Positions 9,110 through 49,200 of a stretch of 64,000 nt of DNA are shown here, one piece after another. The position numbers were made by a program, and so were the translations under genes. This DNA comes from a virus: the IMG/VR virus record IMGVR_UViG_3300042197_001007; one strand, 5' to 3'. Numbering within the stretch: position 1 is the stretch's first letter; every line of letters begins with the position of its first letter. The notes under the pieces are model-generated. The model was not told where the DNA came from, did no database searches, and worked only from the letters and a program-made list of their open reading frames with translations.

Positions 9110-9282
9110 TCTGTCCAAATGTGTTCAATATTATCATGGTAGCATTCTTCAAGGTTCCCGTCAAGGTCCTTGACAAATAATTTCATACCCTCGCCACCAA
9201 GGATACGAACGGTCTTGCCGCTTTTGAGAACGGCAAGACTATTCACATAACCGTGAAATTCATCAGAACGGATCACTGGCAT
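9106..9282 (-). CDS. Hypothetical protein, 58 aa
   Basis: MPVIRSDEF... preceded by GGAGG SD. The longer ORF-track start lies inside the AAA gene. Confidence 0.75.
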   Translation of the reverse strand: MPVIRSDEFHGYVNSLAVLKSGKTVRILGGEGMKLFVKDLDGNLEECYHDNIEHIWTE

Positions 9283-10387
9283 TCTCTTCCTCCTTGGTTT
9301 CAACCTTAGCATCAATCTTATCATACAGTTCGATGAAAGATTGCTTGGTCTCATCATCAAAACGATTGACACAGACCTTGATGGCTTTGATACGATCCTG
9401 CCAGATGGCATAGGCACGGATGATGTGAACCAAGCGACGAGTGCTGATCACTTCATCAATACCACCATCACGGAAGGTTTTACGGATGATATCTGCCCAG
9501 TTGGCAAGGTTCTCACAGAACTCTTCATCCACGGCATTCAGAGCAGCAGATGCTTTCTTGAGAATGGTGGTCTCTACAGTCACGGTAGGATAGTCTTGCT
9601 CAAAGGTGAGAGCAAAACGCTCAAGGAAAGCTTCGTTGAGAACATTGGTGCCGATGAAGCGTCCATCCTCAGAACCCTTGCCCTTGGTATTGGCAGTGGC
9701 GAAGATGTTGAAACCAGCAGCAGGTTGGATGAACTTGCCAATCTTCTTCAGGAAGACACCCTTGCCTTCAAGAATAGATTGGAGACACAGGATCTTGTTG
9801 GATGCCAGGTCAACCTCATCCAGCAACAGAATAGCACCGCGCTCAAGAGCTTCGATCACAGGACCGTTGTGCCACACAGTCGCACCATTCACCAGACGGA
9901 AACCACCAATCAGGTCATCCTCGTCAGTCTCAATAGTAATATTCACACGGATCAGTTCTCGCTTGAGTTGAGCACATGCTTGCTCAACAGAGAAAGTCTT
10001 ACCGTTACCAGACAGACCAGTGATGAAGGTAGGATAGAACAGACCAGATTGAATGATCTTCTTTACATCAGAGAAGTTCCCGAACGGGACATAATTAGCA
10101 TCTTTGTCAGGAATAAGGTTCTGAACTTCCCGAACGGGAACAGGAATAGCAGGAGCAGCAGCAGGAGCATTATACACTTGCTCAAGCTTCTCCTGAACAG
10201 TCAGGTTCCAAGTGCCACGTTTCACATAGAAGTCACGCAGTCGCTTGGTAGCAGTAGCATAGGTGATGCCAAAGACACCACAAGCATCTTGAACCTGGGC
10301 AGCATTGATATCGTTACCAAAGTTGCTGGACAGGTACGAAGTCAGTTGCTCGGTAGTCACGTCAGATTTGGCAGGCATGGAAGTCAT
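9263..10387 (-). CDS. MoxR/CobS-like AAA+ ATPase
   Basis: Walker A GLSGNGKT, Walker B LLLDEVD, NEAFLERF sensor, ISTRRL. Start trimmed to lie below the -10 at 10403-10408. Confidence 0.92.
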   Translation of the reverse strand: MTSMPAKSDVTTEQLTSYLSSNFGNDINAAQVQDACGVFGITYATATKRLRDFYVKRGTWNLTVQEKLEQVYNAPAAAPAIPVPVREVQNLIPDKDANYVPFGNFSDVKKIIQSGLFYPTFITGLSGNGKTFSVEQACAQLKRELIRVNITIETDEDDLIGGFRLVNGATVWHNGPVIEALERGAILLLDEVDLASNKILCLQSILEGKGVFLKKIGKFIQPAAGFNIFATANTKGKGSEDGRFIGTNVLNEAFLERFALTFEQDYPTVTVETTILKKASAALNAVDEEFCENLANWADIIRKTFRDGGIDEVISTRRLVHIIRAYAIWQDRIKAIKVCVNRFDDETKQSFIELYDKIDAKVETKEEENASDPF

Positions 10388-10402
10388 TTCGTTGATGAAC
10401 TT

Positions 10403-10458
10403 AGTATAGGGCATACGGGTCGGTTTGGCGTCAGACCCAGGACGGTTTGCGAAGTGGC
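10403..10458 (-). promoter_or_regulatory. Palindromic early-type box plus -10 (copy 2)
   Basis: GCCACTT-cgca-AACCGTC, 33 nt, then TATACT; no canonical -35. Confidence 0.65.
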
Positions 10459-10940
10459 ATACGCAGATAGTTGGATGCCACCCATGGTTTGCTGGCAATA
10501 TACCTTTTGTATGCCGTAAAGGTATCAATGCTACTATCTAATTTATAGAGATCTGGCATAGCTCTGGCAAATGGAGTTACACTGGTGATCTTACCTTTAG
10601 GGAAAAGATAATATGCTTCCAGCAAAGTGTTGTAGCAAGAATGAAACTTGCCATAGCGAACGGAGTATTCATCGCATAAATTCATACCCCATTTGATCAA
10701 CCAGTAGGCATTGTCAATAGTTTCTGCTGCCCATTTAGTACATGGGTGATTACGAAAGGCACCTTTCTCTGTGCGATATGCGATACCATCAGCTTTGTGA
10801 ATTGGTCCGTAATTATGATACCACTTGGATGCCACGATGGATAACATCTGGCAACACTCAAGTGGCATCTTTACGATATGTTTATCTGGCAAACAAATGG
10901 CACTCTCGGCAGGAAATGGCGAGGTGACAAAGATGTTCAT
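10431..10940 (-). CDS. Pyrimidine-dimer glycosylase/DenV-related (Pyr_excise-like) protein
   Basis: MNIF...LPDKHIVKMPLECCQML...HPCTKW pattern. Confidence 0.7.
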   Translation of the reverse strand: MNIFVTSPFPAESAICLPDKHIVKMPLECCQMLSIVASKWYHNYGPIHKADGIAYRTEKGAFRNHPCTKWAAETIDNAYWLIKWGMNLCDEYSVRYGKFHSCYNTLLEAYYLFPKGKITSVTPFARAMPDLYKLDSSIDTFTAYKRYIASKPWVASNYLRMPLRKPSWV

Positions 10941-43200: not shown

Positions 43201-46200
43201 GTAATACCAGCAGAAGTAACAACACCAGAAATGTTGGTATTTGCTTGAATTCCTGTAATATTATTGACTACTTCGTGACCAACTAATGTATTAGAGTTAG
43301 TAGTAAACAGTAGTTGCGAAGATCCACTGTTTGCCTGCGAGAATAATTTAGCGAAATATCTACTCTCTGCTCCCTTAATTGATTGGACAACTGGAGCATA
43401 TGCTTGATCTCCTCGAAGGAATGTGAAGGAGTTAGCAGCGTCTGAGTTATTTGCTAATCTTGATGTGGCAATAACACCAGACGTAATATCAGAAGCAGCA
43501 ATCTGGTTAGTGGAAAGAGATACCCAATTGTTATTATTTGAAGCAGAAGTATTTACAACTCTATTGATGTTAATAGTTTCTGCTGGGATGTCACTTGACT
43601 GAATTGTGTCGGTTTCAGTTATCTTAATGTTATTAACAATATTTCCATACAATCTGCTTTCAATTAAAGCAACACCAGTTGCTTGTGTTCCAGCACCAGA
43701 TGGAGCAGAAAATGTCACTGTTGGTGGAGTTGTGTATCCTTTACCACCTCTAAATCCATTAAAGATTTGAATTGTAACAGTAACAACTTGACCATTAGCA
43801 ATTGTACATGTTGCTGATGCTGGTACAGAACCTGCCTGTGGAGTTCCTCCAGTAATTGTAATTACTGGAGCAGATGTGTATCCAGATCCTGGATCTGTAA
43901 TATTAATCTGATAAACTACACCTTGACGATATTCTGTTGCTTGAATTTTACCACCAGAAATACTACCAGTAAATACATCATTAGCAGTGAATTGTAGAGT
44001 TGGATCCACATTGAATGAAACAAATAAACTCGCATTGTCATTATTCAGAATGTATGAAGCAGATGTATCTTGTTGAATAGCAATATCTCCAGCAAGAGCA
44101 CCTTCAATCGCAAGACGAGCTGCCTGATCCGCAACAGTAAAGACACTGAATGGTCTGAGTGGTGGGATCTGATCAATAGAGATCTTACCACTGTCCGTAA
44201 GTTCTACAAGCGCCCTAGGAACAGCGTTTGTGGAGTATGGTTTATTGATGTATGGACCGAGGTTATTTGTGATATAGTCCCTAACTGCTTTCTGAGTTGG
44301 CAGTTTGGAGTCGGTTGAGTTAGCACCGCCAAGAGTATTAGAAGCGTCAAATCCAGTAACAACAACGTCTCCACCTTTCAGTTTGAGGAATTCAACTTCT
44401 GAGATGGTAACCGTACCAGTAAAGGTAATATTACCAGTTCTGTTTTCAATTCTTGCGAATGTACCAACCTTAAAGTCTCCAAGTTCATCAGTACCAGAAA
44501 CATATGTTCTACCATAGTTTTCGGAAACTTGTTCATATGCCTCAATTTTGACACCGCCATTTTCTGGTAGAGCATTATAGTTTGTACCAGATCCAGCAAA
44601 TTCCCAAGTGTGTGATGATGAATTGACAATAGATGGACGACGCAATCTAATTGTTTTACCAGTCAAAGTAGAATTAGAAACTGCTTGTCCAGTAGCAATT
44701 GACTTAAATTCTGCTGGACCACCAGATCCTGATTCAATTGTTACTTGAGCAGAGAAAGGAGGTCCAACTGTTACTGCTCCAACTGTATCAATATAATACT
44801 CAATTTCTGGATTTACGTTTTCATATCCATCAATTTTGACAACATAGTGCTCAAGTGGTTCTCTTCCAAGACCATCAATAGTGAAGATAGTTCTTCCAGT
44901 TGGAGTAGAAGAAACATTGGTAATTGTTCCAACGTCAAAAGAATAAGCAAAACTATTGTATCCAGTTGCTCTCAAAGCAAAGATACCAAAGTTGGTAGCA
45001 GAGTTTGTAATAGAAGCATATCCACCACTTTCTGCTAACACACCATCAGTACAGAAAATAACGAATACAGAAACTAACTGTACATAACCATCATTGATAA
45101 TTCTGTATCCAGTTCCACCAAATGAAACAATGGTGAAAGCAGCAGCAACCATTGACTTACCCTGATTTGGGAAAGTAGCAGAACCATCAAGTTCTAGACC
45201 AGGGAATGGGCAGTTTGGTTGTTTGACTTTAGATCCATCAATAAGAGCACCGCCTCCACCTAAGAATGAGATTACCGATGCGTTTTGTGTATATGGAGAA
45301 GCTTCAATAATTGGATAATCATCATAATCTGAACGTGGAGTATAAATTACACCATCTGCGTCATAAATTGTACTATCTGGATAAGTTACAATTCCAACTG
45401 TACTATACAAAGTACCAAAGTTTTTAGTCGTTGCTCCAGGAGCAATAGTACCATCTAAAATATCTTCTAGAAGTGTAAATGAAGTTGTGATTGAAGAAGC
45501 AACGTTAGCACAAAGAGGACTTTCTGATGACAGTAGGATATTCCAATCTTCATATTTTGGTATTGGTGAAGTTAGAGCAGATGTAACTGGGTTGTAGATA
45601 ATAATAGTTCCATTTGCTAGGGCACTTACAAATGTGTGAGTTGCTCCAGATGCTGTTCCAGCATCTCCAACATTAACTGTAACAGTGGTATTTCCACCAG
45701 CAGTTGATACATTGGTGATTGTTAAACTCTTACCATAGTTACGATCTGTTGGTGTTGGACTTGCTAGATTTCCACCACTACCAGAAGTACAACTGAATGT
45801 TAATGCTCCTTCTTTAAAGGCAAGTCTATGGGCAGTTGTAACTGGAGTTGTTGGGTTTGGGAAAGTAACTGTTAGAACACCAGTTGTTGCGTTGTATGTA
45901 GCACCAGTTGGAGTTCTTGTTGCTACTGTACCACCACTCCAGTTACGAATTGCCTGAATGGTTAAATCTCTTACTTGATTGAAAGCATAGATTGTTTCAT
46001 CTCTTTGTGCTTCTGGAATTCCAGTAAGTACTGTGTTTGTAAAATATGATTCGGCAGCAGTAACAATACCAGCATTTCCACCAAGAACGAGATCTCTTAA
46101 CAAACCATCAATGATATAGTTAATGTCTCTACGGCACTTGCTTTCGTTTAGATTTGATAAACCAAGTGATGGATATTGTGTTTTAGTTGCTAGATATGCT

Positions 46201-49200
46201 TGATCTGCGATTAGATCTCTGTTTCTGGCAATTAGATAAGCACCATCTAGATAAGTTCCAGAAGCATTATTTGTGAGAACATCAACAAACAGATATGATA
46301 GTGTATTAATAGCAGATGCTACGTTAGCACATGCTGGTGATACCAAATCATCAATTACAGTTGGATCAAAGTAACGTGTGACTGAAGAATACTGTGGAGT
46401 GTAAATTGGATCAGAAGGAGCTCCATTTTTGGTTCTCCACTTTCTCATCGCATAGATTGCTAACTCTCTGGCATATTCAATAGCACGAACAGTTTGAATA
46501 ATCTCGTAATCTACAAGATCAATTTGCCCAGCAGAAATATATTTCTTTGCCGCATCAATTACATTGTAGTTACTTCCAAATTCCAAATCTCTACAAATAG
46601 CATTTAGGAAGTGACCGATGTCTCTGCGGCACTTAGCATCGCTTACTGGAATATTAAAGCTTGGATACGTCTTTTGAGTTGTTACTCCATTTATAACGCA
46701 ACTAACAACAATACCAGCAAGTCTTACGACACTATCCTCTACTAGAGAAGCAACTGGAATTGATGTTGTAATCGTTGCTTCTCCAGTAACAACATTATCA
46801 TATGTAAAACCAGTTATATTGTAAGCAGTTCCATTAAATGTTACTGTACCACCACTTACATAAGTATGTGCGAATGATGATGGTCCTAGATATATTTTAA
46901 ATTGAACACCACTAATTCCATATACAGGGAAATATTCTCTCTTAAATTGATCATTGATTTTTCTTACAACTTCATCAGCGATGAAGTCAATATTGTTTCT
47001 AATCTGTAAGCAAGCATCTTGGTATCTTCTTGCTACTGGAGTTGCGACTGGGAATTTGTTTGGTGAGTTTAGTAGAGATAGAGTAATTGATTTTGAATAT
47101 GATTTTACATTAGCAAACTGACCTGGATCAAAGTTTGAATCAAGAGTTACTGTAGTTTTCTTTGGAATGACAAATCTTCTCGCTCTACCATCAGCATCTT
47201 CAATAACTTTGTAAATTCTTTGTTTTCCATTTAGAAATGAAAGATCTGGTGATGATGTTGGAAGGTTTGAAATAAAGATTTCCTGACCTTCTTTAAAGTT
47301 ATGAGTATTTTGTCTTCCAACCAGAGCATTTGTATAGAATACAATACCACCAAGATCTTCTGGTGTTCCATAATCTCCAAAACCACCAGTAGCAACTTCT
47401 GGATCACCTTGTTTTGAGAAATCAATTCTTACAATTGGTAAAGCGGAAGTTACATCTTCATTTATGAATACTACTTCTCCTTCTGCTCTGATGGAAATAA
47501 TATCAGTTGAAATAAATTCGTATGCTGCTCTTAAAAATGTGAATACTGCGGTTCCATTCGTAACAGCACCAGTAGTATGAGATGGAGCAGAAGATGCTGA
47601 AGTACCAGCAGTTGTTATAGTATAAACATTATCACCAGTCCAAACCAACTGTCCTAATGTATAAGCAGTATTTGGAGCAAAACTTACCGAACCAATACCA
47701 CCATATTGGAATGTTTCACCCGCATTAAAGCTACCGCTAATAACAGTAAAATCAACAGTACCATTTACATAAGCACTAGCTCCAGTAGTTCTAGTAAATG
47801 TTACATCGGTCAAAAGACCAATAGCACCAGTATTAACACCTCTTACTCTTTGTCCAGCCGTTAATTGAGATAATCCAGTGTTAGTTTGATAGGTAGCACG
47901 GAATTTTTCTGGACCAAAAATTTGATGACCAACTGGGAAATCAACTCCATAATCACCATTTGCTGTTACATCAATCTCAATACGCTGTTTGTCATCAAAG
48001 ACCATCGCGTAATCCCAAGTGGCGACTGGATCACCATTAGAATCAACTTTATCTCTATATGTGACACCAGTTACGTAGTTTTTGTCTCCAAACTTAAAGA
48101 TGTGCTTACGTGGATTATTTGGTCTAATAATAACAAGACGTAAGTTATCACCAACAACTGAAGCATCTGGAGGAAGTGAAATTGGGTTGTCTTCTACATA
48201 ATCACCACCAGAAACAACAATTGTTTCCTTTACTCCTGGAGTTGTCCAAGCTAATTGTGCTGCTTTTTTGATAGTTCTAACTGGATTAACAGCAGAACGA
48301 CCATCATTTAAATCAGAACCAATTTGTTCTGAAACGTAAATGCGACCACCAACGTCATTTGTAGCAAGATTGAGAACGTATTCTGTAGTAGCAATTTTAT
48401 CTGACTTATCACCAAATGATGGAGTAATAGATCTTGGGAAAATTCCTGCTTGACCACCCTGATTGAAATATGGTCTATTTGAATCAACAGCTCTAATACC
48501 AATATGTTTTAACTGAACCTCTCCATTCAACTCAATTCCATCTGTATGTTGTGGAGGAGTTGATCCAAGAGTTCCAGTATTTAATGCTTGATAAACATTT
48601 GTATTATGATAACGATATTGATTTTGCTGTATGATAACTCCCGCAGCCCATGGAGTACCACCAGAGTTCAAGTATGTTTTTAAATTTGGTGCTCTAAACT
48701 GAGCATCTGGAGTAACAAAATTGTCAATATCAAGATTTAGAATTCTTGCCGTATCAGAAATGATAGAAGTGGATGTTCTGATAGCACCATTAATATCAAG
48801 TTCAAAATCAACAGTATCAAGAAAAGCAGTCGCAGCAGCTCCTTGTCCATTACCACCAGTAATAGTTACAGAAGGAGCAGATGTATATCCACGCCCAATA
48901 TTATCAACCAAGATTGCTACGACAGATCCATCACTAATTACAGCAGAAGCAAGAGCCTGTACTCCACCATTTGGAGGTGCCGATAAAGTAACTGTTGGTT
49001 GTAATGTGTATCCAGAACCTTGTGATGTTACAACAATTCTGTCAATTCTATTACCAGTTCTATTAATACCAATGCGAGGCAAAGTAGTTACTGAGTCAAG
49101 TTGTGCTCTTAGAACCTCTTTTTCATTAGATCCAGAACCAGAACGAATCGTTAATTCATTACTACCGATTAGAGAAGGATTAGTAGCTTTGATTTGTTCT

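Follow-up and report, generated by a model that had tools for sequence, protein, structure and literature searches.

The viral DNA analysed here is a stretch of 64,000 nucleotides (IMG/VR virus record IMGVR_UViG_3300042197_001007), referred to below as the window. It encodes a tail fibre protein of 3004 residues, P0001, in which a helical domain interrupted by a beta-rich insert occurs twice, at residues 732-986 and 992-1258. The two domains are homologous to phycobiliproteins (PBPs), a relationship that we regard as close to certain, and on helix E they retain an intact Cys-x-Arg-Asp site that is under selection. The same domain recurs widely in virion proteins as a repeat module. Bilin binding is the best-supported mechanism and an empty structural module its main rival; the probability that the fibre domains are occupied by a bilin is put at about 0.45.

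A phycobiliprotein-like domain repeated in a phage tail fibre

An earlier note on this DNA, made by eye from the letters, had pointed to PBP-like motifs and four cysteines within two helical repeats of the fibre. The motifs and the cysteines (residues 866, 966, 1031 and 1239) are all present at those places in the 3004-residue translation. The two repeats are also related to each other, as blastp aligned their central block with an E value of 6e-14, flanked in collinear order by the first and last blocks.

The relationship to PBPs was assessed at several levels of sequence comparison. The Pfam family proposed by the earlier note (PF00502) matched the fibre with 12.2 bits (E 0.18), below the gathering score of 22.2, and the NCBIfam CpeA model, which has a cut-off of 225 bits, gave 17. 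A single-sequence phmmer search of 177,635 PDB sequences returned four matches, all to PBP alpha subunits (E 0.058); both repeats contributed to these matches, and K-C-x-R-D fell on Cys84/Arg86/Asp87. At the profile level the relationship was significant. Profile A1 was made from 11 cyanophage copies of the domain and profile A2, which is broader, from 73 copies. With A1, hmmsearch of the PDB produced 105 matches, the best 60 of which were all PBPs, alpha as well as beta (best E 1.1e-6), again with CxRD on Cys84/Arg86/Asp87. PBPs made up 33 of the 35 matches with A2, at a weaker best E of 0.0019.

Profile-to-profile comparison by hhalign was performed against an alignment of 11 PBP subunits annotated on cyanobacterial plasmids (A3), with a probability of 96.6% for A1 (E 6e-10) and of 93.1% for A2 (E 3e-7 over 92 columns). 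When the inserts were removed, domain 2 of the window aligned with PBP alpha subunits at 96.7% (E 3.7e-10, 100 columns) and domain 1 at 85% (E 6e-6, 101 columns). Beyond CxRD, the phage domain and PBPs have in common an L-D-A-A..L..N...I...A helix, a P-x-L loop and G-G after helix E. The resemblance to PBPs is more than chance.

Structure prediction gave a consistent picture. A template-free AlphaFold2 (AF2) model of a compact copy, the first row of A2, consisted of six helices with a predicted local distance difference test score (pLDDT) of 93.3 and a predicted TM score (pTM) of 0.87. The top PDB matches listed by Foldseek for this model were all PBPs, with TM scores of about 0.6 over 150-160 columns and weak E values (4e-3 at best). 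When it was compared by VIA-align with 48,161 representative chains, the top 8 were all PBPs or ApcE, the best being phycoerythrin (PE) beta residues 31-184 (Z 14.3, root-mean-square deviation (rmsd) 2.6 over 140 residues); globin-coupled sensors (Z 11.4), photocobilin (11.1) and RsbR (10.9) came next. The earlier note had named a fold that is not globin-like as grounds against its proposal; the predicted fold is globin-like, and AF2, Foldseek and VIA-align together place the compact copy nearest PBPs, so that this ground falls away.

The same note had remarked that the X/Y dimerisation helices are not evident, and they are absent: the structural alignment starts at PBP residue 31-33 and the hhalign alignment at 33-36. 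In the alpha-beta monomer of PBPs, Arg93 pairs with Asp13; 77% of phage copies have Asp where the alignment places Arg93. On the predicted structure, the domain is the PBP globin core minus the X/Y hairpin. Strict membership in the light-harvesting PBPs fails on that hairpin and on the Pfam threshold, and we would class the domain as a new branch of the bilin-binding globin lineage that is carried on virions.

An AF2 model was also obtained for both domains of the fibre together (residues 731-1262, 532 residues, 20 orthologues). Mean pLDDT was 65.7, and the same six helices appeared in the same order twice. Low-probability global matches dominated the Foldseek search with this model, and PBPs were returned as local matches only, with probability 1.00; domain 2, for example, matched 5aqd_A with 26% identity and an rmsd of 3.3 over 108 residues. 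Insert 1 is missing from the more distant orthologues L024-L028, and insert 2 is absent or different in L003-L010 and L024-L028. Therefore, the inserts, being variably present among orthologues, are accessory. Part of the two-domain model also gave weak Foldseek matches to CopC-like beta-sandwiches (probability 0.9-0.97, TM score about 0.35), which may lie in the beta-rich inserts that split domains 1 and 2.

Domain family and conservation of the Cys-x-Arg-Asp site

A phmmer search of 1.84 billion representative sequences found the domain in at least 786 clusters at 50% identity (E<=1e-3). Among the 150 clusters listed, nearly all were proteins of about 1,000-7,900 residues with up to 34 matched stretches, which correspond to tandem copies, and motif-to-motif spacing peaked at 100-115 and at 130-170 residues. 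PHROG families with the domain are those of tail fibre, short tail fibre, baseplate wedge and virion structural proteins, and gp7 of cyanophage P-HM1 contains it. BFVD contains this fold among the fibre and structural proteins of many Synechococcus phages and of uncultured Caudovirales, and no such entry is annotated as PBP-like. The ESM Atlas returned scores below 0.8 only.

Conservation was tabulated over about 1,530 copies. The motif Cys is kept in 96% of them, Arg (+2) in 95% and Asp (+3) in 99%, alongside Asp (+14) in 99%, Asn (+20) in 81% and Tyr (+30) in 98%. Among orthologues of the window fibre, Cys and Asp of the domain 1 motif are invariant, with Gln for Arg+2 in L016-L022, and all four of K, C, R and D are invariant in domain 2. 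The earlier note had allowed for disulfides within each domain (C866-C966 and C1031-C1239). As a cause of Cys conservation these are ruled out family-wide, since 79% of 1,043 compact units have no Cys besides that of the motif, although they may form within the fibre's own subfamily. The motif Cys accounts for 48% of all Cys in the giant proteins.

The three motif residues are also lost together. Among the 1,471 copies that have Cys, 96.7% also have Arg and 100% have Asp. Both Arg and Asp are kept in 47% of the 57 copies lacking Cys, as compared with 96.7% (Fisher p 3e-26, a value that overstates independence as the copies are related). Where Cys is replaced by Phe, Tyr or Trp (25 copies), the proportion keeping both falls to 16%, and Asp+14, Asn+20 and Tyr+30 still stand at 80-88%. 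Therefore, the triad behaves as one dispensable functional unit, with the other invariant residues as scaffold, and this pattern of joint loss points to a ligand site.

The earlier note had proposed that both bilin-attachment cysteines of PBPs are present. This held for the first, at the CxRD site; the second proved to be a feature of a subfamily only. Its context, P-x-C-A-x-[VI], is kept in orthologues of the fibre and in only about 7% of units family-wide. Cys966 is kept in orthologues L001-L022 and not in L024-L028, and Cys1239 is kept in most orthologues, although it was not seen within the stretch compared of L019-L022. By sequence the phage domain is nearer to alpha than to beta subunits, and hhalign against beta subunits alone placed C1239 on beta-Cys153 with a probability of only 26%. 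A role for the second Cys as an attachment site of the beta-153/155 type is thus a lead from sequence rather than a finding.

Bilin sources, adsorption and the proposed function

The distribution of the domain was examined by tblastn against 50,697 phage records. The window region matched 315 records and the P-HM1 gp7 copy 291, mostly Synechococcus phages; the names of the matched records were confined to Synechococcus phage, Prochlorococcus phage and 'Cyanophage', apart from one marine single-cell virus. S-PM2 has about nine copies in two giant open reading frames (ORFs), S-CAM1 about five to eight and P-HM1 six. Neither profile found a copy in P-SSM2 or in the podovirus P-SSP7. In S-CAM1, a prolyl 4-hydroxylase gene and a tRNA gene cluster are situated just upstream of a 3,700-residue ORF with PBP-like copies (L029:4422-5021).

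Arrays of the domain are abundant in IMG/VR contigs, some of which come from jumbo phages without psbA. One of these, G004 (330 kb, 93% complete), has seven domain copies, no psbA and, about 120 kb from the domain genes, an overlapping pair of genes for heme oxygenase (HO, hemO) and ferredoxin-dependent bilin reductase (FDBR). A search started from FDBR led to G052 (85% complete, six domain matches) and G053 (100% complete, three), neither with psbA, so that three of three near-complete hemO+FDBR phage genomes found in this way or with the domain (G004, G052 and G053) carry the domain. The association recurs in G021 and in the fragments G054 and G060. The 11 largest contigs among the closest uncultured relatives of G004, all at most 53% complete and none reaching the FDBR region, include eight with 2-24 domain matches. 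The G004 bilin gene pair (L127:44-3345) stands in an unusual gene set for a phage, with Hsp20 and ClpS upstream and homologues of CsgF and CsgG (the curli secretion channel) downstream.

The capsid protein of G004 is 67-71% identical to those of four cultured phages of heterotrophs, namely Vibrio phage 2.275.O, Sinorhizobium phage Phosso, PA5oct and Erwinia phage pEa_SNUABM_19, in which neither the domain nor FDBR was found. The domain as a general trait of PA5oct-type jumbo phages was therefore rejected on the strength of these relatives. A metagenomic array protein, P0021, has matches to Pseudomonas and Vibrio phages that are limited to its N-terminal 275 residues. Residues 3-275 share 36% identity with a structural protein of the PA5oct-type jumbo phages of Pseudomonas, and this N-terminal domain also matches Vibrio phage 2.275.O; the repeat part of P0021 matches cyanophages only.

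The earlier note had suggested following the co-occurrence of the domain with bilin genes across phages. Such co-occurrence was seen in the hemO+FDBR jumbo genomes and fragments above, with counter-examples in both directions. Pelagibacter phage Mosig (hemO+pcyX) and P-SSM2 (FDBR) have bilin genes without the domain, by which bilin genes as a strict predictor of the domain are refuted; clearly, the bilin genes of phages serve other purposes too. S-PM2 and S-CAM1 have the domain without FDBR, and their hosts are bilin-rich. For every domain-bearing phage with a known host or a complete genome, bilin could thus plausibly come from a phycobilisome-rich host or from the phage's own HO and FDBR. 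In Mosig (L214:1-3681), hemO and pcyX adjoin genes for ferrochelatase, endonuclease V and three 2OG-Fe(II) oxygenases, in a cluster that lies immediately before the neck genes.

In some cyanophages adsorption requires light, a requirement that does not depend on host photosynthesis, and among the phages studied P-HM1 and P-HM2 showed no adsorption in the dark while P-SSM2 and P-SSP7 adsorbed in the dark (PMC6628666). The light-only adsorbers P-HM1, P-HM2 and S-PM2 carry the domain, and the dark adsorbers P-SSM2 and P-SSP7 do not (n=5 phages).

From these observations we propose the following mechanism. Both repeats are members of the bilin-binding globin lineage to which PBPs belong, with a six-helix core (A, B, E, F', G, H), and form bead-like modules of a virion fibre. 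During folding of the fibre in the infected cell, each domain would take up a linear tetrapyrrole and link it to Cys by a thioether. Its propionates and pyrrole nitrogens would be held by Arg and Asp in the manner of PBPs. The pigment would be supplied by the host, as phycocyanobilin or phycoerythrobilin in Synechococcus, or, where the host lacks it, by a phage heme oxygenase and bilin reductase, and its attachment may be autocatalytic, as in ApcE or the bilin biosynthesis-associated globins BBAG-1/3, or aided by a lyase of host or phage. Fibre and baseplate proteins of the released virion would then be pigmented. Their most likely use would be light sensing that conditions adsorption, with photoprotection or a ligand that stabilises the fold as alternatives.

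Triad conservation, coupled triad loss, the co-occurrence of the domain with hemO and FDBR in jumbo genomes and the five-phage adsorption match provide indirect support for this functional reading, in which the earlier note had included light-gated adsorption and the fibre as a possible substrate of T-type lyases. Its later steps are less secure than bilin occupancy itself. Gating of adsorption by light through the domains seems rather unlikely, and we are similarly doubtful of the full proposal, in which the virion would carry its own bilin photoreceptor made of chromophorylated fibre and baseplate domains, with absorbed light gating adsorption.

Several results weigh against bilin binding and the functions built on it. 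The Pfam score of the fibre is below threshold, and strong sequence similarity to PBPs is confined to helices B-E. PBPs lack the near-invariant D+14 and Y+30, which may mean a remodelled pocket. In Mosig and P-SSM2, at least, bilin genes have another role. Conversely, the domain is present in G002, G003 and G078 (53-72% complete), in which no FDBR was found, and the jumbo genomes yielded no CpeT. Bilin genes were not seen in the window, where the Pfam scan took in ten ORFs upstream of the fibre and the fibre itself and seven neighbours of the fibre were compared with PHROGs only. The match between domain and adsorption involves just five phages and is a lead only.

Against this background an exapted structural module is a serious contender. 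A captured PBP/BBAG globin would now be an empty helical bead or spacer, its Cys, Arg and Asp woven into the fold, for example through an Arg-Asp salt-bridge network and a buried Cys. Such a module would behave as a generic repeat, as the domain does with up to 34 tandem copies and variable loop inserts, and the new near-invariant D+14, GGN and Y+30, not present in PBPs, suggest a re-engineered core. The occurrence of bilin genes without the domain in some phages and of the domain without bilin genes in others, and the failure to find a lyase in the jumbo phages, would also be expected of it. However, the triad is lost jointly while scaffold and domain persist, hence it is dispensable for the fold, and a lone unpaired Cys that is 96% conserved in an extracellular protein is hard to explain structurally. 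A neutral spacer also predicts neither the restriction of the domain to cyanophages among cultured phages (tblastn) nor its presence in all three near-complete hemO+FDBR genomes.

Triad conservation and coupled loss argue for a site and leave the identity of its ligand unspecified, which would suit a functional site for something other than a bilin: another small molecule, a metal, or intermolecular disulfide or thioether cross-links that stiffen or anchor the fibre. Globin folds bind varied ligands, after PBPs the structural ranking continues with heme sensor globins and the non-heme RsbR globins (Z 9-11), and some subfamilies have an extra Cys at +10-14 and +90-104. We nevertheless consider such a site improbable, because K-C-x-R-D-[IV]-G, the preceding L-D-A-A..N...I helix and the P-x-L loop fit PBPs specifically and not heme globins, there is no conserved His as heme ligand, and the co-occurrence with hemO and FDBR points to bilins.

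Chance or convergent resemblance, meaning a helix-loop-helix with K-C-x-R-D and no common ancestry with PBPs, could draw on the unmet Pfam threshold, the weak Foldseek E value (4e-3) and the middling Z that helical folds often score, and is scarcely credible given that three independent lines agree (a profile whose best 60 matches are all PBPs, E to 1e-6; hhalign E of 4e-10 to 6e-10; structure) and that the template-free model, over the whole domain, has PBPs as its top 8 of 48,161 chains, 3 Z units above other globins.

Genomic setting and comparison with known systems

The window is part of the genome of a marine T4-like cyanomyovirus, with genes for gp43 DNA polymerase, gp44 clamp loader, gp45 clamp, gp46/47 and UvsW upstream of the fibre. 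P0001 is located in the baseplate/fibre module of this phage, flanked by baseplate-wedge and giant virion-protein genes according to a PHROG scan of seven neighbours of the fibre, and PHROG matches at its residues 275-405 are consistent with an N-terminal fibre domain. The nearest isolates over the region are Synechococcus phages S-CAM4, Sf-CH1b and S-RIM44, at 56-60% identity; the nearest record, the 46-kb fragment G001, gave no PF00502 match. Features of the fibre gene are collected in Table 1.

Table 1. Positions in the window of the fibre gene, its two PBP-like domains and their motifs and inserts
Feature	Position	Strand	Basis
Tail fibre / virion structural ORF P0001, 3004 residues	40212..49226	minus	ORF list and translation; PHROG phrog_5342 'tail fiber protein', E 0
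PBP-like domain 1, residues 732-986; helices A-B, beta insert, then E, F', G, H	46269..47033	minus	AF2, hhalign, domain hidden Markov model (HMM)
Beta-rich insert 1, residues 765-854, B-E loop of domain 1	46665..46934	minus	strands 35-124 of AF2 model m68ec18bdd5a6
C866-R-R868-D869, equivalent to Cys84/Arg86/Asp87, domain 1	46620..46631	minus	position, phycocyanin (PC) alpha alignment
Cys966, second Cys, N-terminus of last helix of domain 1	46329..46331	minus	position and AF2 model
PBP-like domain 2, residues 992-1258; helices A, B, E, F', G, beta insert, then H	45453..46253	minus	AF2, hhalign, profile A1
C1031-R-R1033-D1034, domain 2 motif	46125..46136	minus	aligned on PE alpha K-C-x-R-D
Beta-rich insert 2, residues 1102-1211, G-H loop of domain 2	45594..45923	minus	strands 372-481 of AF2 window model
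Cys1239, second Cys, N-terminus of last helix of domain 2	45510..45512	minus	position and AF2 model

Other features of the window were recorded in passing. Upstream of the PBP-like pair, residues 516-545 of P0001 (window 47590-47679) gave a weak match to the carbohydrate-binding module CBM_5_12 (E 0.5, 10.9 bits). A 421-residue AAA_5 / CbbQ_C protein is encoded among the replication genes (9263-10528, minus strand) and resembles the CobS-like ATPase common in cyanomyoviruses. The long ORF opposite this gene (9341-10519, plus strand) matched no Pfam family and is probably spurious.

PBP subunits (CpcA/B, CpeA/B, ApcA/B; PF00502) have the six-helix globin-like core and the K-C-x-R-D of helix E in common with the phage domain, alpha subunits being nearest by sequence and PE beta and allophycocyanin nearest by structure. 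The phage domain differs from them in the missing X/Y hairpin and in the replacement of PBP Arg93 and Tyr97. Whereas PBPs are free subunits, the phage domain is found inside virion proteins of 1,000-7,900 residues, often in tandem and with beta inserts in its loops.

ApcE, the core-membrane linker, resembles the phage proteins in having a PBP-like domain within a large multidomain protein and in tolerating a loop insertion there, and its structures score Z 13.2-13.8 (4xxi_A, 7eyd, 7sc7). Bilin attachment in ApcE is autocatalytic and thus provides a precedent for lyase-free loading, although its attachment Cys is not known to lie at the Cys84-equivalent position. ApcE is a cytoplasmic component of the phycobilisome with one such domain; the phage domains, in contrast, are virion-borne and repeated and have a canonical CxRD.

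CXRD is a recognised bilin-attachment motif of PBPs and of BBAG-1/3, and BBAG-1/3 load several bilins without lyases (PMC10151467). BBAGs, described by Rockwell, Martin and Lagarias (2023, PMC10151467), are PBP paralogues in non-photosynthetic bacteria, and their genes accompany those for HO and FDBR. As these proteins have been described, they parallel the jumbo-phage relatives of the domain, which likewise occur in genomes with hemO and FDBR and no photosynthesis genes. By the same description BBAGs are small stand-alone cellular proteins in conserved operons, whereas the phage domains are parts of structural proteins and are encoded apart from the bilin genes. Globin-coupled sensors, the RsbR N-domain and photocobilin globins have the same general sensor-globin fold (Z 9-11), and photocobilins also bind bilin; these groups differ from the phage domain in lower structural scores, no sequence signal and no CxRD motif context.

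The hemO and FDBR genes in phages of non-phototrophs have been called 'still enigmatic', with BBAG-type globins named as a possible partner (PMC11480375). Our literature searches for an earlier description of a PBP-like domain in phage fibres found none. PBPs and BBAGs are known only as cellular pigment proteins, and the phage domain would be the first candidate for a chromoprotein of the virus particle. It makes two matters testable, namely light-only adsorption of cyanophages and the presence of heme oxygenase and bilin reductase genes in phages, including those with non-phototroph hosts. If the virion does carry a photoreceptor, this would explain the light-dependent adsorption of cyanomyoviruses such as S-PM2, P-HM1 and P-HM2, which has long lacked an explanation, and the hemO+pcyX/pcyA cassettes of uncultured jumbo phages without photosynthesis genes would serve at least in part for pigmenting virion arrays. 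Previously unannotated, the domain now defines a family of at least 786 clusters at 50% identity, and even if it is empty it documents the capture of an antenna-protein fold as a building block of virions.

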